A stretch of DNA of 64,000 nucleotides. Source: Raillietiella orientalis. Taxonomy: Eukaryota. A program made the position numbers and the translations under genes. Numbering within the stretch: the first letter of the stretch is position 1; each line of letters starts with the position of its first letter. Where the stretch lies: contig JAYWIR010000015.1 in NCBI GenBank assembly GCA_036172245.1, positions 4,216,001-4,280,000 of the forward strand, read 5' to 3'. The notes under the pieces were generated by a model that saw only the letters and a program-made list of their open reading frames with translations, made no database searches and was not told the origin of the DNA. Below, piece after piece: positions 811-62,415 of the stretch.

Positions 811-1895
811 TGTGTGTTGAATCAATGCAGCCCACCGCTGGTCGGACTGGGGAAAGCACAAGATTATAGCTGTGGCGTATGTAATTTATTATACTGTACT
901 GCACCCAAATGAGTTATTGATTTTATTGGAATTATAATTTTTAAATAAATATGTTTGGGAAAAATGAAAATATTTTATTTAATGTGGTGTAAAGTATTCT
1001 AATAGTAACTTTAACCAGCACTTTATGAAGTCAATCGGTACGCGGAAAGCAGTCCGTCCACAGGGATCGCCACTGCCCACAGGGTCGACTCGCGACCCGC
1101 GACAGAACGTTGAAATCTGATGAGCTCCGCACCCAAAGGGTTAAGATGGATTTTTTGATTGCCAGCTTTTAATCCCTGACAAGTAATTCGTGGACTTTGC
1201 ATCTTTGCAAGGGAATCAACGCGCGAGAGAAACAAAAACTGGGAGAGATGAACCCAGGAGAGGCTGCGGAGCTCGATACTCTGGATGAGAAGATACTCTG
1301 GACACTCTGAATCCGAGGCAACAGTGAGCATTCGTAGCTTGATTTTATTTTATTTTTTTGTTCCTTCATTCTGTATTTTCCACTGCGGTGGCTCTTGAAG
1401 TTGTGACGAAAGAGCGGAGTGTGTGCGTGGTCATACTTGAAAGATTTCATTTCTGATCCATCTGATGATCTCTTTCTTCTGTGAAGAGGTGTTAAGATGG
1501 CTGAAAAAGACACACGAGTCCGAGCTGATGTACGGAAATCATAACGAATGTATTCTTGAATGTATTCCTGAAGTCTGTATCGGAGTTCACCGTTTCAAAG
1601 CAGAAGTCGAATGACTAGGATGCACGGAGACCAGGATTTCCCACAATGTTATTCAGAAACGATGCGTTCATCACTCATCATGAATAGGGGATCAGTGATA
1701 CCTGGGGGGAACAGTGGTCCGCTGGAAGAAACTGTTTTGGGAATAGCACATAAACAGCAGGTGGTCGAACCTCTTGAATAGAAAAATATTATTGTAAAAA
1801 ATGTGTACAAAAAATGGTGTATTGGGTTCTTCAGTTTTCGCTATTTTCCTCCCACCTTCTTTTGGGGGGGAGGGAACCTCTCTTCCCCCCCCCCC

Positions 1896-2640
1896 CGCTA
1901 GGCACTCAAGAACCGTTCGCCACCTTAGGAAGCTCACGAAGCTCATTAACACTGTCCACGCCACCCGAGGGTGCATATAACCTTCAAGTTATAGGAGCTG
2001 AACCCCGGAGTGGACCACCGTATGAACCCAGGAAGGCTCCGGAGACAGGAGTCCGTGTTCCTCTTACGCTTGGGAGGAAACCTCCTCTTTATTCTCTCCG
2101 GAGGGATTCCCCGCTTCGTGGGGGCCACTCCTCGTTTCCTCTCCTGAGGGAACCCTCAAGGAACAGTTGTTCCTCGTTCCCCCCTCTGAAGAGAACTCCG
2201 AAGAGGCGCTTCCCAATTTCTCTGAGGGACGCTCCCCGAAAGGGGTACCAACCAGCTCTATGGAAAGCGATGGAGGGTCCCCTTCGATAAGGTGAGGGAC
2301 GGCTCCACTTCCGCAACCTGAGGGGAACACCGGAGGGCTCTTCGATTCCTGGAAGGACCCCGGAGGGTCGACTTCCGATTCCGGCCAGTCATGGGGGCAT
2401 CCGGTTTCCACCAGCGCATGTTTATAAATGTTTATACCGTCGTTTTTATAAATAACGTAGCATGATCAAACGTCCTGCCGCAGACACGTATGTTTATTTC
2501 ATAAATAAACGCCCCGGCGTGACCTGAAGCCTCCAGGCAAACCAGTGTCATCCTGCGAGGGGGACTGGGAACCCACGACGCACCCACTTCTCGGGGGATC
2601 GATCCTTCCTTGGGCGGGATTCGAACCCTCAGCGCCCAAC
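1896..2640 (-). mobile_element. Hairpin-rich tRNA-headed SINE-like element, copy 1 (diverged; interrupted at about 2421-2522)
   Basis: Aligns by eye with 55230-55950 and 60860-61550. The minus strand carries a perfect B-box GGTTCGAATCC near 2617-2627 and a second, degenerate B-box near 2570. Confidence 0.75.
2421..2522 (+). mobile_element. Short 3'-terminal fragment of the Tx1-like LINE family, inserted into SINE copy 1
   Basis: cacgtatg...aataaacgccccggcgt matches the LINE termini at about 26280-26320 and at 14700-14755 (reverse complement). Confidence 0.55.
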
Positions 2641-14699: not shown

Positions 14700-16450
14700 A
14701 CCCGGGTACGCCGGGACGTTTATTAAAACTTTCCTATGGTCAACAACATACGTGGTACAAGGCCCCACTAACGGCCACGCAACAACGGACCTGCCGGGAC
14801 GCCGGGACGCAGCCCGGTATGACTCTCCTAGGCAGTGGAGGGGGATGGGGGAGAAAACAAAAATAAAAATAAAATAAGAAAAAAACAAAAAGAGTTTGGA
14901 GGGCCGGGAAGGGATCACATTTCACTAAGGGGAGGGCCCATCCTTTGTAGGATGCCCTCGAGGTCCTCCTTCATTCTACCCAGCTGGGGCCATCCGGTAG
15001 CTCTCTGCAGGAAGCGAACAGCATACGGGATGACGTCCGTTACGTTGCAATCTTCATCTTCGGCTCACTCCAGGCCGCCACAATACCACGGATGCAGCAA
15101 AGTGCTGCCAGGGCTGCGGCTGGCCTTAGGGCGTCCCGCACGAAGAGAAGACTGTAAACGTCTCTGGGGTTGCCGCCAACCGGTATCCCAAGGGCCGTTC
15201 CGAGACGATCCCACAGAATCCGGAGGGCAGGGCAGTCAACTATAAGGTGGTGGGGGGACTCCCTCTCCCCACACCTGGCACACTCAGGATTCACTCTTCC
15301 CCGCGTCCAGTGGAAGCGGCGCGCGTTGCAGGGTAGACCCTAATGCAGCAACATGAGCGCCGACTCTTGCCACTTCAGGGGAAAGGCTACTCGGAGCGGG
15401 ATCGCAGAGCGAAGCAACTGGTGGCGCTGTGCGTCAGCAGATCGATGGGTGACTAGAAGGGGTCCTCCCCTACCCCACCTTCTCCGAAACCGAAATCCCT
15501 CCGGGAGATCGAAGTCGGAGCCGAGGTATCGACGCTGGACAGTGCCGCGCGCGAGCGGAAAGGCAAGAGCGCCCAGCCGAAAGGGCTCATCTTCCCGGAA
15601 GATGTGACCCCGCCGTCGAGAGCGTACGCCGCTTCTGCGTGCGGGCCGACCTCGCAGCCCCTCAGCTCGAATGCTCAGCGCGTAACGATATGGACGATAA
15701 CGTATGGACGATCCCTGATGTCGTTTCGAACCCGGGGATTGTTTCTTGCTTGCCCCCCGTAGTTTGAAGGACCCCCAGATGAGAGCAGGGCTCTCATCTG
15801 GGGGTCAACGCCAACGCCAACGCCTTCCTCCTCCCGCTTTCGGATCGACCGGATGCGAACGGGAGCAGCAACGGAAAAGGAGGAAAGCCAAGGGGAGAGA
15901 TCCTCAAAGGCAGAAGCTCGGACTTCATGCTCGACGGGACCAGCAGAGGCCTCGCCTAACTCCGTTTGCAATTCCAGAGATCGATAAGATCGGAAGAAAC
16001 TTTTACGAGTCGGAACCCGTTCGAACTTATGCCCCGGTCCCCATCTGCAGGAGTTTTACGATGCGGTGCTGAAGAGGGAGGGAAGTAGGATTTTACGAGC
16101 CAAGAGGAGTCCGAATGGCTCTCCAAGGCAATCGCACGTTCTTGGGGCATTTCAGGGCGTTCCCTCCCCGGCACAAGGCCGAGACCGCCACATAGATCGC
16201 GCAAGTCCTCAGGATTCGGGAGCAGTCCACAGTCCATTAGAAGCCTTTCCTTTCCACGGTCGCTGCCTTTCCCGCTTTGTCTTTCAACGTCCAAGCGATG
16301 CAAGAAAGACACTTGCATTTCGCACCATGTACGGTGGAACGGGGCTGAAGTGCGTAGCAAGGGGAAGAGCAAGTACCCCAGTTGACGCACGTCTTTCGAT
16401 GCTGAGAAAACCCGCGGAAAAGAACGAAGCACGAAAAGTGTGGATTTGAA
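14700..16450 (-). mobile_element. 5'-truncated Tx1/L1-like LINE (ORF2 C-terminal half plus 3' UTR), decayed
   Basis: GGLGL motif (about 16180), zinc knuckle CARCGERESPHHLIVDC (ORF 15040-15294), C-terminal LFVRDAL.PAAALAALCCIRGIVAAWS, T-rich 3' UTR tract, AATAAA, terminal CCCGGG. Confidence 0.85.
15770..15806. repeat. Perfect 17-bp inverted repeat, 3-nt loop
   Basis: gacccccagatgagagc-agg-gctctcatctgggggtc. Confidence 0.95.
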
Positions 16451-18294: not shown

Positions 18295-18435
18295 CCTATT
18301 CTTGCTTGCCCCCCGTAGTTTGGAGGGCCCCCAGATGGGAGGTAGGAAAACTTGAGCCAACGCCTTCCTCCTCCCGCCTTCGGACCTACCGGATGCGAAC
18401 GGGAACAGCCACGGAGAAGGAGGAAAGCCTGACCT
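18295..18435 (-). mobile_element. Internal fragment of the same Tx1-like LINE family
   Basis: Close match to about 15743-15890 (ttcttgcttgccccccgtagtttg...ccggatgcgaacggga...aggaggaaagcc). Confidence 0.75.
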
Positions 18436-22640: not shown

Positions 22641-23704
22641 TCCCCAAGTCATGGTGTCATGTATCGACCGGATGGCGTGCTCCAGATGCCTGGGAAACCG
22701 TAAACGGTCATCCACGGGGCATGCTGGAAGGGGGAACTTTTTCTGCAATAATAAAAAAAAAAAAAGTCTGAGGGGCTTCCGGCATTCAGTGTACGTAGGT
22801 AGCCACCTATCTTTTCGTCAAAGTCGCTTCTATTGCATTTTCATTTTTAGTCGAAACGTCTTTGCAACGTCCACGCTGGTCCGCACTGACGGCAAACGAT
22901 TCTCTAAGACCGCTTTCTATCGGAGAAGCCCCACCCTATGTCTGCTGCCAGAAAGGGCGCAGTGATGCTTCCTCCAGGCAAAAATGGGGCTCTCGAAAAC
23001 ACACTTCGAGAGGATAGGACCTCAGCTACCGGACTTTGGTTGAGAATGTGGGAGAAGGAAAAACCAAATCGGTCTTCCGGTGACTTGAGAACGAGAGTGT
23101 TACGACCTTTGACGGAATGTCCCCAGTAGCTGGCTTTCACCGGTCCAAAGTGCATTGGAAAAACCAACGATCCTTCCTAGGAGGTGTTTCTTCAAGTTAG
23201 CTGGGAAGGAAAAACACCTTAAAACAGCGTGAGCTCCTCTTTATCTTCGTGTCACGAGCATGGTGTGCGCGAAACGAGGAGTGCATCTTCGTTTCTGACA
23301 CCTGGTGCATTCCACCTCAGTTCTTAAATAGCTAAATGCAAGGCTAAGAATTTTTTTTCTTCTTTCTCTCCCCTTTTGCGTGCTTCTTCCTTTTGCCCAA
23401 CCGGGGATCATTCTTGCAAATGCGAAGGCAGGAGGACTGCTGCTCCTCTGCTCCATGTTCAGGTGCGACGGTATTGCTGGAGAAAATGCACAAGTTGCTG
23501 AACGTAACGGGACTATTCCGTGGGTTGGATTCATTCAGCCCATCTGAATGCTCGAGTTCTGTTCCAAGTCGTGGGAATGGAGATAGGGAAGACTTGCCCG
23601 CGCCACAGAGAAATGCCGAAGGGAGCGAATGCAAGTCTCCCAGCCCTCTCTGTCCCTGCGAAGCATGGTGGTGTTCAAAGTGAACCAGAGGAGGCGAAGG
23701 TGGT

Positions 23705-23973
23705 GTCCCTCCGGAGAGAATGAGGAAGGAGATTCCCTTCTGGGTTCCCCTTCTGAGACAACCAGGGTGAGAGGTGAGATCCTCCCTTCCCGAACATGAG
23801 AGGAACGGACTCCGAGCCTTCCTGGATTCATAGGGCGGACCCTTCTGGGGTGCGCTTCTATCTTGAAGAATAACATGCACCCTCCGCGGGAGGCGTGGAA
23901 CAGTGTTAAAGAGCCACGTGCGCCGCGAGGCACGCGACCGGCTATTGAGGTACTTTGCGAACCAAAAAAAAAA
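23705..23973 (+). mobile_element. SINE-like element copy 2 (5'-truncated, A-tailed)
   Basis: Matches the 3' third of 60860-61550 (gagaggaacggactcc, ggattcatagg, tcttgaagaa, gtggaacag) and ends gcgaacc(A)11. Confidence 0.85.
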
Positions 23974-25769
23974 AGTAAAACCTGAAAAAACTGGAAAAAA
24001 AATGCTGCGAAACATAGCGAAGAGAGAGGAGGCGAACGAAAAAGAGAGGGAGAGAATGGCAGCCATGTTGTACAATCCGCATCCCTCCGATTCTCAGGTT
24101 CCCGCTGTCTCAAATGCGCGGGGACGTCACAACCAAAAAAGGAAAAAAAGCAACATGCGGATGCTTCACGATGAGGAAAGCTAAATGATAAAATCGCCAT
24201 GGTGAGAGACATTATGTAGTCTCTGGAATACTACCCAGCGGCATCTATTCTCTCGTCTTGGCCACTTCCTAAACTGGAGAACAGGCCAATCGTCTGCCTG
24301 CTTTCAAGTCCACTCACCGATCGCCTTGTATTTCTTGGCGTCTCTTAAGCGAAATCCACTCAAAAGTTGCATTGGACCAACTGCAACAAGTAAAAAGCCA
24401 TGAGCCAGCCAAGCGAAAATTTCATAAATTGTTTTCTTCCATGCTATGAGACGCCTCGCCCATTTGGGACTTTTGTTCTCCCTTATGGCTGCCAAGTTAA
24501 CGGAAGAACAAGATAAGTAATGCAAGGGCACAATGATTATGTAAAGTAAATCTCAAGTTACGTGCATCCTCAGGTTCTCAACTAAGCTCGGGGTCATATT
24601 GATAATCTTCCTTTAATTGATTGGGAATTTTGGATTTCAGCTTTACATGTTTAAGAGTCCCATTGCTATGGAAAATGAATCTCCGACAACGCTTCCCATC
24701 GATCTCTCCTCAACTTCAGCTGCTCTTTTCGTCTGAGTGATGTTATTTTTTAACTTTCACGTCAAACGGTCAAAAGTATAGACGTTCTACTAAAACTAGC
24801 CTCACACAGAGAATCATTCAAAATCTAAACGGAAGGCTAACATTGCATCTTGATGGTGCATCTTGCATATCTACCCTAGAAACGGCAATCTGTTTCTTGC
24901 TATCATGCTCAATGGAAAATGAATTGCTATTTTTTTCTACGTATGGAGGATATTGCAGTACTCCAAAGCGTACTAATGCGAAAAAAATGGAAATACGAAT
25001 AAATAAGTTAATAATGCATTACACGCATCACTATAAATTTTACACATAAACTACTATGTTTTACTAATTAATCAGCTATACACCAGGAAGTATACACTGA
25101 TTGATAAATTAACACAGAAATGTATGTCTATAGACTATTAGAAATCCATGATGGTTTATCGGTAACACTGAGATATCCCTGTCTGAGAACGTTTATACTG
25201 ATGCATTCAAACTACATTCATATATGTGTACCTATCCGTATATATGCATACATATGCTTGGATTGGTACCTGATCGTATAAGTGCATATTATGGCAGCCG
25301 ATAATCATCACACAATAAATGATTCCAAGAATGGCCACCGAGAAACGCTGATGTTTGCAACGTTTTTGTCACAGACATCTTGTTCAAAAAATGTGGTAGA
25401 ATTTCGTGTACCATGACATCCTACCAAACTTTCTAACCAATGGAAATTAGATGGATGCGTATACTACATACTAGAAATACAGCCCAACATAGTGAGGATC
25501 AAAGACGAAAAGGCAGAAACCAAATCACAGCGGAACACGGAATGAAATAAAATTAAATTAAGTCGAGAGAAGAAGATCTGCTCACAAAGATATTTGATTC
25601 GTCCGCTACTTTGGAAAGAAAGGTTTCTGGCAAAACTCAAGGAATAGCCTAGAGAATAACTGAGCACACGATCTTACAAAGGACATAGCAGTGCACGTCC
25701 CACGGCAAAATGGAGCCTCGTGTTCCTCGGATAACGCAAATGCTTTTCTTTTTCTTGTGATTTGGATAC

Positions 25770-26325
25770 TCTTCCTTGTTCGGAACTTGCTCCTACAGCC
25801 TGAGGTCCCCTCTGGGAACGGTTCGGGACGACCCTCGGGCTCCCTACGGGCAGCACCCCCAGAGACGTTCTTCGGCCCCTCTTCGTGAAGGACGCACTGC
25901 AGCCAGCCGCAGCCATCGCAGCCTTGTGCTGCGTCCGTGGCATCGTGGCGGCATGGAGCGACGCCAACAACGGAGGAGTGGGTCCACACGCGAGGGATGT
26001 CATCCCATATGCCCAACGCTTCTTGCGGAGAGCTGCCGGATGGCCCCAACTGGGGAATACGCGGATGGACCTCGAGGGCTTCCTTCAACGGATGGGTCCT
26101 CCTCACAGCGAATAGTGATCCCTTCCCTGCCCCCCAACTTCTTTTTGTTTGTTTATTTTTTATTTTTCTTTTTGTTTTATCCCCATCCCCCTTCGCTGCT
26201 GAGGAACCCTACGCCGGGCTGCGTCCCGGCGTCCCGGCAGGTCCCGTGCGTATGGCCGTGAGCGGGGCCTTGTACCGCGTATGCAGAGTTTTTTTTAAAT
26301 AAACGCCCCGGGCGTACCCGGGTGT
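25770..26325 (+). mobile_element. 3' fragment of Tx1/L1-like LINE
   Basis: KDALQPAAAIAALCCVRGIVAAWS...WPQLGNTRMDLEGFLQRMG*. The 3' UTR is homologous to 14700-14940 and ends aataaacgccccgggcgtacccgggt. Confidence 0.85.
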
Positions 26326-29559: not shown

Positions 29560-30760
29560 AAGAATGAATAAATGAAAATTCCAGATTCACCTTGTGCAAT
29601 GAGGACTTCACCGCAGTTCGGGGAGGGAGCAAAGAAGGAGAGGGGAGGGTCACCAGGTATCTGTCCCTCGTCTTGGAGCCTGCTGGGATGCAGGAAGCGT
29701 CCCCTTCGATCTCGAGCAGAGCTAAGGTCACTCAGCTTGCTGAGGGGCAAACAAAATAAAAATAAAAGAAAAATCGATAAAAAAAAAAAAAATAATGTGG
29801 GGTGCACGGGAAGAGATCACTGTCCTCTGGAGGGCGTTCTCTGCATCCTTTCCAGCAAGTTACATCAAGATGCCGGCAAGTTCCATCCGAGTATGACCCA
29901 GGCGGTGCCAGCTAGCTGCCGTCCGCAGGAAGCTCAGGGCGGAGCAGATGGCGTCCCTGTCGTGCCTTCCTCCTCTCGTGTAGCTCCAGTCCTCCACAGT
30001 CCCGCGTAGGCAGCAACAAAGAGCTGCTAGGGATGCGGAAGGTGAAAGGGCATCGCGCACGAAGAGGCTCTTCATCACGTCTCTGGGATTGTCCATCGGT
30101 GCACTAAGGGCCGTTGCATAACTCAACCACAGGTCGGAGGGCAGCACAGCCCACAAGCAGGAGCGGGAGGAATTCCCGTGCCCCGCATGTGCAACAGTTG
30201 GGGCCCACAGCTCCCCGGGTCCAGTGAGAGAGGCGGGCATTGCACGGGAGGCCCCAGTGCAACAGCAAATCCTGACGTAGGTGGCCTCCCCTCACTGAGC
30301 GCGAGACCCCAGCACACTGAGGGCTGTGACGATGGCGTGGATACATCATGTGCCGCTGCAATGACGACGCCTGCCGAGAAGTTGGCCGCAAGCGAAGACA
30401 TGACCTTCAGCTCCAGCACACGATTCATGGAGGGCACTGCAGTCCAACAGTAGGTGTGTGAACGGTTCTATCGCCCCTCACCTTAAACGGTTCAGAGACG
30501 CGAATCTCCTGGAAACCAGGTTCCTGCACTGGTTGCACTGGAATCCCCCCCTCATGCGGAAATAACAGCACGTCCTGTTTCCAGCGCAACGGGAACAGAA
30601 ATGTTCGAGCACGGAGGAGGGACCACGAGGCCTTCGGGATGGAGGGGAGGGGGAAGCACTCTTCAGCTCGCTCCACCGGAGCAGCCCCTTAGCCCGGTGG
30701 CTCGGAGTGACGGCGTCCACTCGCCTTCCAGCCGCCTGGGCGTTTGATCGCTCCTGAAGT
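29560..30760 (-). mobile_element. 3' part of a related Tx1/L1-like LINE subfamily
   Basis: Zinc knuckle CCTCGAREF, LFVRDALSPSASLAALCC and WHRLGHTRMELAGIL, then a T-rich tract. The 3' UTR differs from the 14.7 kb and 26.3 kb copies. Confidence 0.8.
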
Positions 30761-33700: not shown

Positions 33701-34786
33701 TTAAGGATCTTACAGCGGTTGAACGTAAAGTGGATCATATTTGAGGCAAGGAAATTGCCAGCTCAGCTGAAATCTGTTGCATTTCTTGCAAATTACAGAA
33801 TTTATTATGTTGCCATACATTCTTACGAATACGGTACGAATTTGAAACTCTCTTGTCTTTGTGCGGTGTAATGTACAATGCCATTTTAAAGTAATCTTTC
33901 AGTTCTTAGATAGTCCAGTTAACAATAAGTAGAGAAGAAAATGAATTCGAAGACAGGAACTAAATAATGGACTTATTTCTCTTTTCACTTAAATAATTTC
34001 AGTTTTGACAAACACTGAAGTGTGGCTATCAAGTTACATCAGATGAAATTATGCTCGCATGCAGTATCATTTAATGAAACAGTTCAGTTCTAGCATCTAA
34101 AAAGTCTCCTAAGAAAAAAGACAAAAAACACTCACTCTTACGAAAACTTTCAATCTTGCTCACTGCATCAAAGTCATTGAAAAGACACGAGGATCTGAAA
34201 TGAAATTCGTTTGCGTATTCTGAATTGCTTTCGTGGATACATATTTTTTAGACTGATTATCAGTACAAAAAAAACAAAAACAATCAGAAAAAGTTAACTG
34301 ATGTATTAACAGTCTCAGATAGTTGCTTGTAAAAGAAACAGTGATGTATCGTTAGTGAAAAGCGTTAAGGAGCAACCCTTGGTATCCGTGTACATAGGTG
34401 TAGCCATGACTGCAGTTCGAAACGAGGTCTGGAATGGGTGTTTGAATGGGTTACAACTTGCAAACTCCGTACTCGAACTAAATTATTTTGCATCTGATCA
34501 CCACCGAATATCGAATTCCCAGCCGATTACAACAGAAAAACATTGTCCGGAAATCAGTGCTGTTGGTTAAAGGAACTGTTTGTTACTGTTGGTGTGGAAC
34601 AAGTAGCATCTCTAGTGCATGGACATACCAAATTACTTGTGATGATTTTGTCGTAGTTTAGTACGACATTATTGATCCTTGTACCTAGCCAAACAAAAAT
34701 AAATCAAACATCGAATATCTCATGATTGATCCAATCGTTTCCTTATTTGTGTTGATCGTCATATTACCATTGTAAGCGACGTGCAA

Positions 34787-35677
34787 ATGTCCGTGTATTT
34801 AGAATACGCGCCAGGAATAGAGCATCTTATTCATTGCTTATTGAATGCATTGGCATCTGATGACGTAGAAACGGTGCAGGCGATTTTTGAAAGTCGATAT
34901 GTATCTTTTGATTTTCTCTTGAAGAGAGGATTACATCCAATACTAATTGCTTCAGAAAAAGGTTCCTTAAAATGCTTAAAATGGCTGATTTGTACCAATC
35001 CGAGCGATTTTCAAAGTGCACGTGTGTATGACCCCAAATGGACAAAGAAATTGATTCACGGTTGCTTCAAAAGACAAGCAAATCACATATCAGCAAATTA
35101 TTACGATATCTTACCATTACATCTTGTTTGTCGAAATTCACATGAAGAGTGCTTGAATTTCTTGATTATGAATGGTGCTGATATGAATTCTAAATCCGAA
35201 ATTATGGGAACTCCCTTACATCAGAGTGTAATGTCAAAAGATTTGAATTGCCTTGAAAGTTTACTCCAGAAAGGTGTGGATGTTGATGAGAAAGATAAGT
35301 GGGGGTACACAGCTTTACATTATGCTGTTAGCATGTCAGTTCTCCCAGCTGCAAAAAAGTTGCTTGATTATGGTGCCAATGTTAATGTTACTGATTGTTT
35401 CAATAACACCCCTTTGCATCTTTCAATACCTGGAGATGACATTGAAATTTGTAAGCTACTATGCACTCATGGTGCAAATGTTGCAGTTGAAAATGATGAT
35501 GGAAATAATTGCATCCATTTAGCCTGCATGTATGAGAGTCTTGAATGCTTACATTTTTTGATTAAACTTGGAATTAATTTAAATGTCAACAATAAGAAGG
35601 GAATGACTCCTTTGCAGTTGGCCTCACTCCATCGAAAATTGCAAGCAACAAAATTGATAGTAAATTTAATCATTTAG
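34787..35677 (+). CDS. Ankyrin-repeat protein (about 296 aa, roughly 7-8 repeats), single coding exon
   Basis: Long open frame in AT-rich DNA with repeated motifs: LPLHLVC, GTPLHQS, GYTALHYA, NNTPLHLS, GNNCIHLA, GMTPLQLA, and GADMN/GANVN linkers. First ATG at 34787; CCAAT about 55 nt upstream. Confidence 0.92.
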   Translation: MSVYLEYAPGIEHLIHCLLNALASDDVETVQAIFESRYVSFDFLLKRGLHPILIASEKGSLKCLKWLICTNPSDFQSARVYDPKWTKKLIHGCFKRQANHISANYYDILPLHLVCRNSHEECLNFLIMNGADMNSKSEIMGTPLHQSVMSKDLNCLESLLQKGVDVDEKDKWGYTALHYAVSMSVLPAAKKLLDYGANVNVTDCFNNTPLHLSIPGDDIEICKLLCTHGANVAVENDDGNNCIHLACMYESLECLHFLIKLGINLNVNNKKGMTPLQLASLHRKLQATKLIVNLII

Positions 35678-53568: not shown

Positions 53569-56500
53569 TCAAGGGAAAGAAAAATGGCGCCTATCCCCCA
53601 GTTTGCGAAGAATTTTATGCGAGAGCATGTAAATCAGGACGCACAGCAAGGCCAAGCATTCGGCGATAGTAAGCAGACTTCCACCGAATAAGAGCCCGAT
53701 GATGCCTCCAACTTTACCTGTAAAGCAATAGAAAATGGAGTTTGCACGCGGACCGATGAGGTGAATTACTTACTTAAAAAAATGAATATGTTAATCGTTT
53801 CATATCTGAAAACAAACACGTGATGATATGGGTATATCACGATGAGGTCGCCTATTTCCTTTCTGAAATATCAAATGCATTTAGCGTCTTGCTTTCGTTC
53901 TGAAATCCTGCTGAGGAAAACAGATATCCGATTTTGTCACACAGCGTCTTCGCGATGACTGCGACGGTGACCGCATTTGCAAATGTTCCATCCACACAAC
54001 AGTAAACACTTCATTGCGTAATCACACTCTCCGTCTAAAAAGGAACGTATTTCTGTTCTTCCCGGTGCTTTGCTGTTTGCCTTGATAGAAAACCTCTTCT
54101 TTCTCTTATCACTCTACAATTAGCTGCACCTACTATAGACAGTCTTTCCCTGTCTCATGACCTTACTATCTGCAATAGGATTAGGAACCCTTACAAGAGC
54201 TATGCAAATTGCCTTCGGCATCGCTAGTTCGAAAACGGACCAGTAAGAAAGGTACTCACTGTTCTGGGATGTTGTTGGTGCTTTTGAATCTTGTTACAAA
54301 ATCAGGAAGGAAGCTGCTTGCCTTCACTTTGGATTGAAAGCTGTTCCTTCGACACCGTTGCTTACAGAAGCCTAGAGCTCATAAGAAACGTGAGAGAAGC
54401 ACCCGTGTTTACCTTGCAAGTTCCAAAGCTCCGTCTCTTTCGTTCTCATCAGCTCAACGATTTCACTGGAATCGCAGGTCCTTTGGATGGGAGAAACTAC
54501 ACAGAAAAGAATGTAGCACGGCTTCGAGGAGTCGGATCTCAGTTTCCTGCTCAACAGGACTGAGGAAATCTGCACGAATTCTTAAGAAAAGAGGAGTCGA
54601 TGGCACTTCGTGCTGAAGACCGTTATAAGATGAAGGGTGGGTAAAGAACCTCGTCTTGGATGCTGGAGATGCGAACAGCTCCGGTGGAGGTTTCTGAAGG
54701 AAACTTCCTGGCCCTCGTCAGCTTGTCGATGGTGCAATGCGTACGCGCGCAAAGAGTACGGGTTCGCAGGAACGTGATCGATTCACTCTGTCGTGTTCGT
54801 GTTCCTCACAGACAGCCCTCGAAATCACGGAGCAACCAGTCACGCTTGGACCGCAAGAAACGAAAGCCGACCTCTGGGTACGTCCCTTACTTAGCTCAGG
54901 TACGAAGGCCGGGGTGCAGTTCACCGGGGAGAGAATCTCGGAAATACAGTGGCTGAGCTTCGTGCAGAACTTCATCGTGTACTTCACGTAATCGACAGCC
55001 CCGAAGTTGTCTGCGTCCTCAGATTTCCCCATGTCCATGCAGTTCCGGCGCTTTCCGACGAAGAAATTCGTTTTGAAGGAATGAAAATCCGCCTGAAAAG
55101 GGGTACAAAGGATCAATTCCCGGACGGAAGGAGGAGCGGATCTGCCCTGGGGAGCCCTCGACAGCCTCGCGCGCTTCCCGACTCGTTTGGAGATGGAGAA
55201 CGAGAAGGGAGAACGAGTGCTGATCCCCGATACGCCAAATACCTCAGGAACCGTCGCGCCTCTGGTGGCGACTCTTCAACGCTGTTCCAAACCACCTGAG
55301 GGTGCGTGTAATTCTTCAAGATGGAGGGCACCCCGGAAGGGGCACTCCCTATGAATCCAGGAAGGGTTCGGAGTCCGTTCCTCTCGCGCCTGGGGAGGGA
55401 TCCCCGGAATGGAGATCACCTCCATCCTGGTTGTCTCCGAAGAGAACCTCCTTCCTTATTCTCTCCGGAAGGACCCCCCAAGGGGTCTGCTTCATTTTTT
55501 CTTACCGTAGGGAATCCGCAAGGGAATCGTTCTCTGCCTTCTTTGAATAGAACCCCGAGGGGACGCTTCCGGAACTTCTCAGAAGGGCGCTGCCCGAAGG
55601 GAGCGGCGCGCTTCTTTGCTCCCTCTGGAGAGGTACCGCACCAGCTCTAGGGTACGAGAGGGAGGGTCCCCCCCGAAGAAGGGGTCCGCTCCTTTGAACA
55701 ACCGGAGGGGAACTACTCACTCCTTGATTCCTGGAAGCACCCGGAGGTCGACTCCCAATCCCAAACACTCATCGGTTTAACCGATACCGGGGCCACAGCC
55801 GAATGAATGCAGGCCGACCGTCATCATCTCGCGGGAGGAACTCGAACCCGCAATGCATCCCACATCTCTCGGCGTCGATTCTTTCCGAGTATTCGAACCC
55901 GCGACGCCTGGAGGTGCCACACACGGAGACCGCGACCACGTGGCCTCCCCTCAATACGCCGGAGAGCGCCAGAAAACTAGGGAGATCATCTGATCCATGA
56001 TCGCGGGATGGACCATCGATCTAGAGTGCCATCAGATTCGGAGGGCTGTCACGTGTCGTTTCTTCCCGTCAACGCCCTTGGTCACTCACTATCCCCTCCC
56101 CCTCCAGAATGATGAGAGAGGTGCAGCGGGCGCACAGCAATCCAGCCGCTCTTAGCAGTAGGTGGCGAACTTGGTTCGCGTTCTTTCAAAACCTGCCGCT
56201 CTGACAGTGCATGTCGCATCTCGATCATCCTGCTGCAGAGTCCAACGAATCGCAGAGAGGAACATATCGATCGCTTGGTACGGAGTGGGAGCACCGGGGC
56301 TTCATCAATGGGTAATGAAAAGGAAGCATACAATTAACGGCGGTTAGAAGTCCCGCCCCTATCCTCAGAAGCCTGGAAAATTCCGTGCTCTGGCAGCCCA
56401 GGCGGGAGTCCGGATGCGGGAGGGGAGAGACAGAGGCGGTTCCTCCCTCGAGGGGCTCGAGAACCCCACATCGGAGAAGTTCAGGAGCTGAGGAGAATGC

Positions 56501-59500
56501 CCCGAGGATGCACTCGGATCGAGGGGAAGCGAAGGACTGGAACCCCCGGGCCGCTCGCGGACCTATCTCCTCTAGAGGGACCGGCACCTCTGGAGGGAGC
56601 CGTCCGCGGCACCCGAAGAGAGTCTGAGAATCGAAGGTCCTTCGTGTTCTTCACGCGCTCCTCACAAGCAGGGAGATCTTCCCCCCGTGATTCCCACACG
56701 GCTTCCCATTCCTCCGAGGATCGTCCCTCCGAAGATGTCCTTGGCGGCTTCTCCCCCCTCCTCTTTCGGTGAGGCTGGGACTCCTTCCTCGAGCAGGCTG
56801 TTGGGCATTCGGCTCTTCCCCTCGGACGCCTCCGCCGCCACAGGTCAGCCCGCAGCGTTTGGCTCTTTGGAACGCTCCTGGAGACCGTTGCCTGCCGAGA
56901 CGATGAGGCACCCTGCGGTCATCCCTGCAACAAAGGGCGACTTCTCTCCTGGAGGTTTTAGCGCTTTCCACGCTTCCAGGAATCAAGGAGTGAGAGTTCC
57001 CCACCGGTTGTGCAAGTGAGAGGGGACCCTTTATTCCAGGGGAACCCTCCGTGTCGTGCTGATGGAGTAGGTGTGCCGCTACCTCTCAAGAGAGTGCAGA
57101 GAAGCGCGCCGCTCCCTTCGGGAAGACGCTCTTCTGAGAAATTCCGGAAGCGTCTCTTCGGGGTTCTATTCAGAGAACAAGGCAGGGAGCGGTTCCCTTG
57201 CGGATTCCCTCCGGAAAGGAAAAATGACGCAGACCACTTCGGGGGTCCTTCCGGAGAGAATAAGGATGACAACCAGGGTAGAGGTGATCTCCATTTAGGG
57301 GATCCCTTCCCAGGCGCGCTAGGAACGGACTCCGAGCCCTTCCTGGATTCATAGGGACGGCCCCTTCTGGGGTGCCCTCTATCTTGAAGAATTACACGCA
57401 CCCTCAGGTGGTGTGGAACAGCGTTGAAGAGCAACGAAAATAACGAAGACAGAAAAGAAGAATTCCCATCATCCCAGGTCAATGGTAACGACCTCCTCGC
57501 GGGGTCGCTACTGGCCTTTTAAATAAAAAAGGAAGAGTGGAAGCCTCATAGTAGTGTTGGCGGTAGCAGCCGAGGCAGGGAAGGAAGGAGGTCAAAGAAA
57601 GAAAAGCGTGTTTGGACGCTAGCTCGTATGCGACGGGATCCCAGCGCAGCCCCGGTTGGAGCTCCCTACTCTCTCCTCCCCACCCTTTTTCGTGGCATGG
57701 AGGCTCAGGGAGTAATGCAGGGTCTTCGATGAAGCTGCGGCTGCTTAGGCCGACTGTCAGCGAGCGCGCGCACAGGCCGTCTGTTGAGACTTCGGTAGGC
57801 ACGACCTTGAGATTCAGCATGCGGGCGTCGTCCTCCCTTTATCAGAGTGGTAGTCCATGAGCATCTGCAGTTCAGCGGTGACCGGATGAGGGGAGCCTTG
57901 CTGTCACGAGCAAAGGGCGATGACTTTCGTAGCAGGTGAGCGAACTTTCCGCGACTTCTAACCTTCCCTCCTTCCCAGGAAGGGAATAGGGCGATTCACC
58001 TGGACCTTCCTCAGGATGACTTCGACGGAGCTTCCGGGAAAAGCCTCGTAGTCGGTCATCTTCATCACTGGGAAGGCGCGGTCGCTGAGGATGTACACAG
58101 GGAAGACCTTGGTCTCCGCAAACATATGCAGCATATTGTGATCCAGAGCTGCAACACCACCATGGAGGGAGCTGCATCATCTCCCCAAGAGACGTGAATT
58201 ACCAGAGTTCTTCTCGAACATCAGGCGGATTCTCATGTACCTCAGCTTCATGAAGAAGTTCTTCAGCCTGCTGTCCATCGATGAGAAGCACTTGCCGTAG
58301 GGGGTGATCAGTGTGTAGTTGAAGAGCGTGCGGCAGCACGACGCTCCTGGAGAGGTGGGGTAGTCGTGGAAATCGCAGGAGTAGATTAAGTCCTCGCATC
58401 TGGAAGGACTCCGGTGAAAGAAACAACGGCCCGTCCTCGCTCCACCCGCTTCATCCAGGGCGGAAGCCTTCCCTATCCCGTGTGGAGGTTCAGAGTGCGA
58501 TGGCATGGACCGGACCGTTTCCCAGACCGCGCACCTCTCGAAGGGAGCGAAGAGGCACGGAGACCACGAGTGCGTGACCTGAGTCCTCTAAAGATGCAAG
58601 AGATGGGAGGGGGCTCTCACGTGGAACATAATGGAGGTTGGCGCTGGGGTTGGTCCAAGAGGAGCCAAGAGAACTTCGGAACACCGCGAAACGGGTTCTT
58701 CTAAAGAAAGAAAGCTCTTCCTCTCCAAGAGAAACCCTCGTCTGCTAGTGCTGGTGCCGAGCCATCCTTCCTTTGGCGGTGGCAATGATTGTCTCTCTTC
58801 CTCCCGCTCTGTCTTTGATCCTCGCTCTCGTTGCGTCTGCTGGCTGCTTCGGAGAAGCAGCTGCCTCGAGTCCACCTGCGTGTCCAGTTTCAGAGGCATC
58901 CTCCAGAGTCTGGACCGCCTGCACCGGGCCGATGTGTGCTGATCACTGGTCAAGGATACCTACATTTGCACGTCTTTTTCGTGTAAAGCGGAAGCCTGGA
59001 GAGCTCGGACCCAAGTCACTCCCCCCGAACTTCCGCTTCCCAAAGATCATTGACACTCAAAAGACTCGGAATGTCTGGAAGACGATCGCTACAAGCTCAG
59101 ACATCACGCGCCTCTGGCTGTGTCAACTTTGCATGCTAACACACCTGTATGTGTGTGCGTTGTATACGTATATTCGTGTATACACACATGGACACAATAG
59201 ACGTTTTGTGATATACAGTACTATCCTGCGTTCAATTGCTACTGTACAAGACCGTATACTTCGCCTTCCATGTCCACAAAGCAACGCAGATGTATATTCA
59301 TCTATACACGCATTCTGCCTTATAGAGAAACCACAGCACTGAACCGATTTCACTCAATGTCTGGAGCATGCAGCCGGGTAGGAATGCATCGGGTTGTTTC
59401 CCATGGGAAGTGTAGGGATTTTTTCCTATGATCCTTGAGTTCTTGTTCGCAAATAGGCATTCAGGAAGATGAAATTTTCAGCTCTGCAGAGTTTTCAATA

Positions 59501-62415
59501 CGCGAAATGCTTTGTTTAAAGTTTTGGGTTTCGAATGCTTATGCGGAATATCCAGCTTTTCGATCAATCAGGAAAATTCCGAGGATGGAAGTTGGCTCAG
59601 AAGTTGTGCTGCCTCTCCTTTGTCTTCGATTAGCGTGAACATCGCGCTGCGACTCCTAAGGAATGAACCCACACTGCATTTTTCAAGTAGAATTTAGAAT
59701 CAGGTTCTATATTTTTTTGCCAGAGGATTATCGAACTTCTGCATCAAACCCTTCCAGCGTGCAAATCCACTGTTCACGCTGCATATCCACGCTTGCCATT
59801 AGTCATTAGCCAATCACTTAGTTACTTTATAAGCAAGTAAATTGAGATCCTTTTGGTTCGTAATTGGACTTTTGAGGGTGCTCTTTTGCACATCGAGCAG
59901 TTATTGTATCGTTGGAAGGATCCGCTACTACCTCTATTCCCTGAGGATTTTATCACGAAAAAGCGAAAAAAGAAAACCGTCATCTTTAATACTTAGCGTT
60001 GAGTCGTGGACACTTGATTCATATGTGGTTGATAAAGCGCAGAAAAGTTCTCATCCACTACCAATGAATCAATCGGAAGTGACCAGTATTGCCACTGATT
60101 CCCATTCTGGGACCTCCACACTTTGCGCAATTTGCATTAATCTGGAATTGCCTGGGCCCATTTCCCACTTTTTAAAAAGGAACCGCATGGAAGATAGGCA
60201 GCGCAATGTACAGTCAGGTTGAGTACACCACACAAACAGTGCATATGTGCCCCGAGCACCACGCGCATTATGTTTGCGATCTCTTGGAAAGTTTTTGCCG
60301 TTAACCTCAGAGCATTGATGATTCACGGGTTGAGCCTTCCACTAATTCTAGAGATCGATTGCCTCCGTTTTGTTAGTCTCGTAAACAAATATCCTTCATG
60401 TTTGGAATCGACGATACGCACCACTGGGATTTTCTGCCTCATTTGCAATAGCAAGAATTTCATACAGAAGATAGTGGTTTGGGCTTCCCCTTGCCTTGAA
60501 CTTACCTGATGCTTAGATCCATGAATATTTCTTTACCCGTCATATTTTTATCCTCCATGAACTGTTGGTACCATTTCCGTAATTTCTCTTGCTTCTCTCT
60601 GTTCTTCATGAACTTTAACTGTATCCATGATCCCAAGCCAACAAAGGACAGATACGTTATCTGTTCATCCGTAAGCCCATAACCTATGATAAAATAAAAG
60701 GGTTCATTAGACTTCAGAAGTTCAGAGCTTCCCGGCTTCATGCTCAAAGTTGAAATCTGCATAAAGAAAGGAAAAAAAAAAAAACTAGATGAAAGTGAAC
60801 TTGAAAGAAAGATGAAATTTTCGTAGCGACATTGCTGTCCTTTTGCGATTCTGCCCGCGTCGGAGGTCACTTGGTTGCGGTCTACGCGCGCGGCACCTCC
60901 AGGCGTCGCGGGTTCGGGTTCCTCCCGCAAGATGACGCTAGTCGGCCTGCCTTCATCCGCCTGCGGCACCGGTAGCGGTTAAACCCGATGAGTGTCTGGG
61001 ATTGGGAGTCGACCTCCGGGTGCTTCCAGGAATCAAGGAGTGAGTAGTTCCCCTCCGGTTGTTCAAAGGAGCGGACCCCCCCCTTCGGGGGACCCTCCCT
61101 CGTACCATGGAGCTGGTGCGGTACCTCTCCAGAGGGAGCAAAGAAGCGCTCCGCTCCCTTCGGGCAGCGCCCTTCTGAGAAGTTCCGGAATCGTCCCTTC
61201 GGGGTTCTATTCAGAGAAGGCAGGGAGCGATTCCCTTGCGGATTCCCTCCGGAAAGAAGGGGGTCCTTCCGGAGAGAATAAGGAAGGAGGTTCTCTTCGG
61301 AGACAACCAGGATGGAGGTGATCTTCCTTCGAGGATTCCCTCCCCAAGAGTGAGAGGAACGGACTCCCTTCTCCGGTGCCGTACGTGGATTCATAAGGTG
61401 GTCTTCCCCCGGGGTACCCCCTACCTTGAAGAATTACACGCACCCTCGGGTGGTGTGGAACAGCGTTAAAGAGCTTCGTGAGCCCCCGACGGTTTTTGAA
61501 ATACTTGGCGAACCAAAAAAAAAGAAAACCCGAAAACAAAAAAAAAAAAAGTACAGCGAAGGCACAAAAAGAACCCAAAAGGATTTGCCATCATCCTGCT
61601 AAAGAGGAAAATTTTCCTCTTCTTATCCGTGCTCACATGGATCCTCTCGGTTCTACTGAAACATGAATGAAAACCTTCTCCACTGCATTTTTCCGTGAGC
61701 TCTCATGGAATTGAAAACGCCAATGATTTGACTGCGAAAGGAGATGATTATGAAAAGTAAAGAAAAATGTTCAGCATCCAGACAAAAACTTGTCTGCAAG
61801 AGTTCATAGAATTTCGAAAACGCAGACAGAAAGTCATGTAATTAATCATTATTTAATATAACCTTCAAATGACGAAAATGACGAATTCTATCTTAAAACC
61901 ATCACTGAAATCCGTCGCTAGGACTACAAGTGCCATTCTCGGATATTTCAATCTATCTCCGGGTCGTAAAGTGCTGGAGATCTAAGGACTCACTGTTCTT
62001 AATAATAATAATTGAAGCGGAGAGGGCTGCCTGTGCTTTGTTTTAGTTGAAAAGACGCTGTCGCTCATGAAAAGATTGTCTTTTCTCTTCTGGATCAATT
62101 CGGTTGGAAGGGAAGTGACTACTTATAAGACTTACGTTCAACTGCTTCGTTGCTGAGAGGTCCTGACGAACAGAGAATGATCCTGGGAAACTCCTCGTTT
62201 CCCTGCGTGATGGATGAAGCTCTCAAAAAGATTGGCAGCTGGAGAACATTGTGCATGATATATTGGTGTAGGTGGTAAGCACTTAAAAGCATCATTGTTG
62301 TAATAATGAAACTCCAGAGAATTTTCTTATATCTTTTTTTGCTCTCCAGGATGTGGCGTATTCCATGGACCCTGGTAGTCCTGAGAAAAACGAGTATGAT
62401 ATTCGAAACACGCAT
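53569..62415 (-). CDS. DEG/ENaC (pickpocket/ASIC-family) ion channel subunit, about 479 aa; exons 62415-62136, 60683-60506, 58399-58203, 58148-58000, 55092-54891, 54496-54413, 54371-54260, 53862-53774, 53717-53569
   Basis: All eight introns are GT-AG with matching phases, and the CDS sums to 1440 nt. Motifs: N-terminal TTRVHG, TM1 (ILWSFIIT), FPRIILC, CEDLIYSCDF...CC...TPYGKCFS, FPGSSVEV, Cys-rich thumb (YTMKFC...C...NCTP...C...CKQRC), TM2 SKVGGIIGLLFGGSLLTIAE. An extra upstream exon cannot be excluded. Confidence 0.93.
55230..55952 (-). mobile_element. SINE-like element copy 3 (full-length, doubled B-box head), in intron 4 of the DEG/ENaC gene
   Basis: Minus strand: A-box-like AGGCCACGTGGT, two B-box-like motifs (GGGTTCGAATA and GGGTTCGAGTTCC), and a hairpin-rich body close to 60860-61550. 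ATACGCC occurs at both ends (55230-55236 and 55954-55960). Confidence 0.85.
56972..57445 (+). mobile_element. SINE-like element copy 4 (5'-truncated), inverted relative to copy 3
   Basis: Reverse-complement match to about 55270-55740. Confidence 0.88.
59400..60480 (-). mobile_element. Decayed hAT transposase remnant in intron 2 of the DEG/ENaC gene
   Basis: AHMHCLCGVLNLTV resembles the hAT HC.AH.LNL.V motif; a downstream QWICTL resembles the TRW motif region. Confidence 0.45.
60860..61550 (+). mobile_element. SINE-like element copy 5 (single B-box head, A-rich tail), in intron 1 of the DEG/ENaC gene
   Basis: tRNA-like head (ggtcacttgg...gggttcgggttcc), body with cccttcggg and tctcttcggaga hairpins, ending ggcgaaccaaaaaaaaagaaaa. 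Confidence 0.88.

Follow-up and report, generated by a model that had tools for sequence, protein, structure and literature searches.

The 64,000-nucleotide stretch of Raillietiella orientalis DNA analysed here (the window) carries five homologous copies of a long repeat with a tRNA-like head and a hairpin-bearing body. These copies are dead and are old copies of a long non-coding RNA. Their positions and parts are as follows.

1824..2636, minus strand: copy 1, of the most diverged group, with an AT-rich insert of ~120 nt after the head
23700..24011, plus strand: copy 2, 5'-truncated, stopping in the internal A-rich region
55226..55957, minus strand: copy 3, 85% identical to copy 5, with both B-box-like words, 3'-truncated
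56966..57530, plus strand: copy 4, truncated on the 5' side, true 3' end present
57477..57530, plus strand: end of copy 4, with hairpin (57477-57516), T4 terminator (57517-57520) and A-tail (57521-57530)
60853..61596, plus strand: copy 5, of the old subfamily, with an intact 5' end and a head deletion of ~50 nt
60853..60897, plus strand: tRNA-like head of copy 5, forming a single rod (of 15 pairs in the family)
60911..60922, plus strand: B-box-like word of copy 5, in which the tandem pair of the family is fused by deletion
61030..61430, plus strand: body of copy 5, a degenerate array of ~40-nt units (C-run, short loop, G-run, purine linker)
61515..61550, plus strand: internal A-rich tract of copy 5, which often primes 3'-truncated copies
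61551..61596, plus strand: start of the 3' unique region of copy 5, ending just short of the terminal hairpin

Copies in the window

The sequence-only reading had recognised five homologous copies, their polarity and a 5' truncation of copies 2 and 4. Self-BLAST and a profile search both recover the five, and the polarity and the truncations (23700-24011 + and 56966-57530 +) hold. Copy 5 begins with the sharp 5' end of the family at 60853, not at 60860 as had been proposed. The 'A-tails' ascribed to copies 2 and 5 are the internal A-tract; copy 5 runs on to 61596 without a real end and has no terminal hairpin, no tail and no recognisable target-site duplication. A true 3' end within the window is found in copy 4 only. 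The suggested length of about 700 nt was too short, the full element measuring about 870-1,090 nt.

Short hairpins are indeed present. Copy 5 has a folding z-score of -3.7, with none of 20 shuffles equally stable, and contains three UUCG and two UUCC loops closed by at least three pairs. A stem that had been cited as compensatory occurs in the alignment in all three quoted variants, but its interpretation as covariation fails: across 64 gap-free copies the pair is C-G in 54, a broken C.A in eight, U-G in two and U-A in none (copy 1 lies outside the groups used for this count), and the variant series is therefore no covariation at the level of the family. Copies 3, 4 and 5 form one clade and hence are not independent. 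ARAGORN, run on the window and on 11 copy loci, predicted no tRNA, and an Rfam search of the window, which had been recommended as a check, gave no hits at E 1.

The repeat family

Sixteen copies or fragments were found in 40 blind-picked 10-kb stretches (400 kb), where they make up 2.0% of the bases. Extrapolation to the 210-Mb genome gives ~8,400 copies (roughly 8,000); a control with reversed sequence yielded 6-7 hits, and the seven checked all lay on real copies. The copy number falls within the SINEBase definition of an interspersed family with at least 100 copies. The old subfamily is ~835-900 nt long, below the 1-kb limit of SINEBase, and the source locus described below (1,091 nt) is above it.

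Full copies end in a hairpin, a T-run and poly(A) and have target-site duplications (the mis-oriented L130 and L141 are not part of this survey). A duplication of at least 10 nt adjoins the 5' end in 12 of 13 full-length copies, compared with 2 of 156 mismatched flank pairs, L128 and L150 being excluded from the count. The terminator, which ranges from T2 to T9 across copies, lies inside the element before the A-tail, as T+ SINEs require. Of 14 young 3'-truncated copies, seven carry a 12-17-nt duplication where the element breaks off, and this duplication often includes the final letters of the element. In 11 of the 14, the break falls within an unpaired stretch or at its border (no null computed). 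Duplications, A-tail and 5' truncation are the marks by which SINEBase recognises LINE-type insertion, and the duplications show the LINE-type junctions of the copies. Intact LINE open reading frames with endonuclease and reverse-transcriptase domains are abundant in the genome; from their layout, not from a tree, we read the host LINEs as 'L1/Tx1-like'.

A length above the SINE range would suit a derivative of a LINE 3' UTR, an LTR element or a DNA transposon in place of a Pol III element. We consider such an origin very improbable: none of 30 LINE loci, which represent one LINE family out of 3,358 candidates, has the tail of the element, the sole matches being two adjacent SINE fragments, and the element has no terminal repeats and possesses a tRNA-like head, a T-run and tails. 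At L095:926-1114, a LINE cut short at its 5' end has the 3' part of a copy next to that end in antisense orientation.

In a tree of 78 copies, younger groups form a ladder beside an old star, with divergences from the group's own consensus of 0.16, 0.09, 0.08 and 0.05 along the groups. Its rows were taken from 134 profile hits, from which those below 550 nt and two merged double copies were dropped; the tree also omits 10 rows whose middle parts are identical, although three of these rows are separate neighbouring loci.

Near-identical tracts of 300-700 bp are shared by old neighbouring copies with different flanks, including window copies 3, 4 and 5. Such pairs are L005/L017 (C16, 6.6 kb apart, inverted; ~500 bp with zero mismatches), L010/L018 (C12, 12 kb) and L020/L022 (C7, 40 kb, inverted). 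The shared tracts are the product of long-tract gene conversion between nearby copies, which can blur the subfamily ladder. The L149/L150 pair (C4, 75 kb apart, inverted), in which the 3-kb loci, together with their flanks, are 99% identical throughout, is a segmental duplication or an assembly duplicate.

A 23-letter end motif does not occur in the metagenome contigs. A search of part of the literature found no account of the family.

Head and body

The interpretation as a tRNA-headed, Pol III-type retroposed RNA is upheld. The initial 45 nt fold into a rod of 15 pairs. The head of the source locus, compared as the first 76 nt of the youngest form, is 60-65% identical to host tRNAs over 74-77 nt, scoring above 40 of 40 shuffles. 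Its best match is tRNA-Gly(GCC) (65% over 74 nt), with tRNAs for Asp and Thr at 61-63% and shuffles at 53%, and no single parent tRNA emerged among 46 distinct host tRNAs. SINEBase sets a threshold of at least 60% tRNA identity over at least 60 nt; the source head reaches it, and the old consensus stands at 58%. Two tandem B-box-like words follow the head, the second of which decays in the young subfamilies. Such words are present in the copies and the A box is poor; the balance leans towards one source that has an upstream element. AATAAA is absent near the 3' end of the source locus, occurring only at nt 230 and 515 of 1,091.

Period-40 repeats are visible in the old consensus, and the subfamilies differ by the gain of whole units. 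The hairpins derive from a ~40-nt unit by copying and decay. Because the body is a degenerate array of such units, the many similar loops are copies of one unit and not independent events.

The candidate source locus

One option raised in the sequence-only reading had been that the repeats are retrocopies of a structured Pol III RNA that has a master locus, and this option gains direct support from a locus outside the window:

G000:C6, element start 5520684, minus strand: L226, candidate source locus, 1,091 nt

L226 comprises a TATA-like word at -30, a tRNA-like head, a hairpin body, an internal A-tract, a terminal hairpin and T5. This final T-run is the sole run of four or more T in the locus, no internal T4 being found where about one is expected. 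Examination of 18 of the youngest loci showed L226 to lack both a tail and a duplication and to end in T5. The exact end motif followed by T5 was found at 23 loci, all of which were read: 21 are A-tailed, and L226 and L123 have no tail, although other tail-less loci may exist beyond this motif-limited screen. A TATA-like word is present in only one of these two, L226, and at -34..-22 it occurs in none of 69 other intact-head flanks; L247 has one at -35, yet is A-tailed. L123, which ends in T6, was rejected as a source: it lacks a TATA word, and a worn duplication may begin at its T-run.

When positions -32..-1 of L226 were compared with the same stretch of the best-scoring U6 gene, the match was beaten by one of 5,000 random windows, in a comparison made after the sequences had been seen. 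The upstream region of a second U6 gene could not be aligned with that of L226 (score -12), and no PSE-like match was seen between L226 and the upstream regions of U6, MRP and SRP genes. L226 and the best U6 gene also have four letters after the T-run in common, which was noticed post hoc.

The public run X1, whose kind is unrecorded, yielded a single contig of 955 nt that equals L226 letter for letter over 938 nt (nt 16-953). Compared with L132, the contig has 17 differing letters and 8 inserted ones, and L226 shows precisely this set of differences. The next-best match is L232, 100 kb from L226, with one gap letter, and the other 19 loci differ by 11-32 substitutions. Since several of the letters common to X1 and L226 occur in just 2-4 of 20 young copies, the contig is no majority consensus. 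We infer that X1 is an RNA run; its reads appear to be dominated by L226, as expected if X1 is RNA and L226 is transcribed. On the 10-kb stretch of L132, X1 covers 4 of 30 bins and no part of the flanks of L132, where a hole proves nothing. L232, the closest daughter of L226 (L245, C6:5621400-5623400), lacks both of its ends, and its flanking duplication measures ~35-40 bp, the usual length being 10-16 bp.

L226 is the likely source gene. We lean, with slightly better than even confidence, towards a family of non-autonomous retroposons supplied by a single source lineage, represented today by L226, and we class it as a tRNA-headed SINE of excessive length that, in the manner of BC1, has a single source.

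Retention of structure

The sequence-only reading had proposed that the RNA structure is or was under selection, possibly as an unusual SINE central domain with stable UUCG tetraloops. Selection on structure has modest evidence in its favour, which does not distinguish between the strands, and the covariation tests were negative. A conserved central domain is unsupported, as are UUCG tetraloops as a selected feature: closed UUCG loops fall from five in the old consensus to two in the source locus, and the CCC-UUCG-GGG segment folds no better than shuffles.

Column-wise pair retention, measured on an alignment with visible register shifts, was 0.28-0.47 in the trunk versus 0.30-0.38 in dead copies, with one of 12 comparisons at p <0.05. 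Trunk change amounts to 17% at paired and 18% at unpaired positions, against 15% and 17% in dead copies. The head rod shows no both-side change among 17 distinct copies, and the ratios of G-U to A-C mismatches (24:25 and 17:18) show no asymmetry, at low power.

The youngest consensus outfolds the old copies in five segments (25/25, 28/30, 29/29, 25/25 and 27/27); in the sixth, which holds CCC-UUCG-GGG, it is not better-folding. Across segments it lies 9-36% away from the old consensus. The 38 substitutions by which L226 departs from the Y1 consensus destabilise the fold less than random changes of matched type do (p 0.011 for the plus and 0.001 for the minus strand), and the 45 substitutions from the old consensus give a less clear result (p 0.036 plus, 0.21 minus). 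An earlier trunk-versus-tip folding test was replaced, its tips being GC-to-AT biased and some of its trunk steps consensus flips. Comparison of C-run and G-run lengths gave 25 matches, to which no statistic is attached, and single cases include an A-U pair that became C-G via a mismatch and a stem lengthened by one pair through insertions in both of its sides. The source lineage retains its fold-back capacity to a mild degree, and the two strands are not told apart.

Several of these results would also agree with an ordinary SINE with many transcribed copies. In that case L226 would be a copy that lacks its tail by luck, and the hairpins would have arisen as a side effect of C-run/G-run unit duplication and of fold-back errors in DNA or cDNA. 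The period-40 repeats of the old consensus, the strand symmetry, the negative covariation tests, the B-box-like word kept in copies and L123 as a second tail-less copy (T6) all point that way. Such a multi-source family nevertheless needs the absence of tail and duplication, the TATA-like word, youth and the exact X1 match to have met at L226 by chance. Moreover, a DNA-level process acting on all copies is insufficient, because the copies lose folding while the trunk does not, and we judge this explanation improbable.

Another interpretation takes L226 to be a previously undescribed 1.1-kb Pol III gene that the host keeps for its own function, with the thousands of copies as its retropseudogenes. 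It could be a giant BC1-like regulator, controlling translation via the A-tract and the 3' hairpin, or a replacement for 7SK in the form of a strongly diverged 7SK. The anatomy of L226 favours a host gene as much as a retroposon source, and so do the persistence of one lineage over ~16% neutral divergence, the superior folding of the youngest consensus over all or nearly all old copies in five of six segments despite 9-36% change, and the four letters shared with U6, seen post hoc. G000 furthermore has U6, SRP and MRP genes and no arthropod 7SK was found there, a blank that shows nothing, as 22 of 3,456 candidates were scored. Against a host gene, the trunk changes no more slowly than dead copies, modules were gained and loops changed freely. 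For a 7SK in particular, the 5' end pairs locally, the first GATC (GAUC) of L226 is at nt 570, and Rfam at E 10 gave 12 weak hits on L226, none of them 7SK and none above cut-off. On this evidence a host-kept gene is doubtful, yet deserves more weight than the multi-source SINE. If true, the body would be an expanding array of hairpin units, and ~8,000 dated retrocopies would record each step in the evolution of the RNA.

Insect telomerase RNA contains a template word complementary to the telomere repeat. Against L226 as a telomerase RNA with a TTAGG template, four 5-letter template words have no match in the locus.

Proposed mechanism

For a retroposon family with L226 as its single source, Pol III would start from the upstream TATA-like word and the internal B box and stop at the U-run. 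The 1,091-nt RNA would then be adenylated post-transcriptionally without an AAUAAA signal, in the way that has been proposed for the U-ended RNAs behind snRNA pseudogenes (PMC4476161). A putative partner LINE with endonuclease and reverse transcriptase would copy the RNA by target-primed reverse transcription, with priming from the added tail, from internal A-rich sites or from target-complementary sites; internal priming by LINE protein is described for tailless retropseudogenes (PMC5322556). Copies without the upstream promoter would be mostly silent and would leave a single subfamily ladder, and ID element copies are silent for want of upstream promoter elements (PMC1978531). The body probably grew through duplication of one hairpin unit. 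The mild retention of folding may mean that folded RNA lasts longer and is copied more, whatever its particular loops, the fold presumably protecting a long naked transcript.

Comparison with known systems

SINE source genes are rarely pinned to one locus, the usual examples being BC1 and BC200. The candidate RNA would far exceed any SINE of SINEBase in length and would be several times as long as 7SK or 7SL. The ladder of copies allows the growth of the hairpin array and the changes tolerated by the source lineage to be followed, and the family would add an invertebrate example of adenylation without a signal and of internal LINE priming.

As in the BC1/ID system, a single Pol III gene would be the source of a SINE family (PMC4923876, PMC1978531, PMC13034634), and the copies are probably silent where upstream promoter elements are missing. 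BC1 has a tRNA-derived 5' stem-loop, an internal A-rich region and a short 3' stem-loop, and all three are found here. BC1 measures 152 nt, whereas L226 is about seven times longer (~1,090 nt) and includes a 650-nt body of hairpin units; unlike ID elements, many copies keep the 3' hairpin and the T-run and gain a poly(A) tail. BC1 is a rodent RNA of neuronal dendritic RNPs, and the present host is an invertebrate. L226 is BC1-like in layout and no homologue.

The tRNA-derived SINEs of SINEBase, including the quasi-oligomeric CHRS, resemble the family in their tRNA-like head, a body of unknown origin, a variable number of degenerate units, A-tail, duplications and thousands of copies (PMC3531059). 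The 175 families given in that paper span 75-662 nt without the tail, and the present family is longer than all of them, its youngest subfamily having passed the 1-kb limit; it also differs by a candidate upstream promoter and by a terminator inside the element. Insect SINEs of 263-389 nt are reported in PMC8010984. The T+ SINEs B2, Dip and Ves likewise have a Pol III terminator before the A-tail, often shortened in daughters, but here there is no AATAAA near the 3' end and a terminal hairpin stands instead (PMC8466645).

Tailless retropseudogenes are similar to the 3'-truncated copies with duplications, whose breaks fall mostly in unpaired stretches (PMC5322556), and polyadenylated snRNA pseudogenes to the A-tails on a U-ended RNA and to a U6 chimera (PMC4476161). 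Both kinds are described for mammalian L1 and known small RNAs, in contrast to the unknown 1.1-kb RNA considered here (PMC5322556, PMC4476161). Dozens of U6 copies exist in the genome, some of them A-tailed, and at L246 (C7:651988-652572, minus strand) a U6 3' fragment is joined directly to the head of a young copy.

Protostome 7SK genes share with L226 a Pol III-type gene with TATA, a 3' hairpin with U-run and a poorly conserved sequence (PMC8406779). L226 differs in being two to three times longer and in having a tRNA-like head with a B box, and it has neither the 5'-3' closing helix (M1) nor the GAUC pair in the 5' hairpin (M3) (PMC8406779); both marks are described in PMC8406779, PMC2995076 and PMC5389472.

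Other features of the window and the genome

A second repeat family with an internal A-tract lies in the window at 14700-15216 (plus strand), 25810-26323 (minus strand) and 29753-30267. Its 5' part resembles both the insert of copy 1 and the upstream part of L125, a locus that bears the 3' end of the hairpin-bodied family, and modules seem to have been swapped between the two families. The 10-kb stretches of G000 range from 34% to 64% in GC content, with a CpG observed/expected ratio of 0.90, which indicates little loss. The EF2 protein encoded in this genome shares 84-90% of its residues with animal EF2, the best named insect reaching 89%. A further two-copy repeat (78% identity) occupies 15743-15889 and 18299-18429 of the window, and an uninterrupted 315-codon frame of ankyrin repeats, whose best relatives are ~33% identical, lies in an AT-rich stretch at 34730-35677 on the plus strand.
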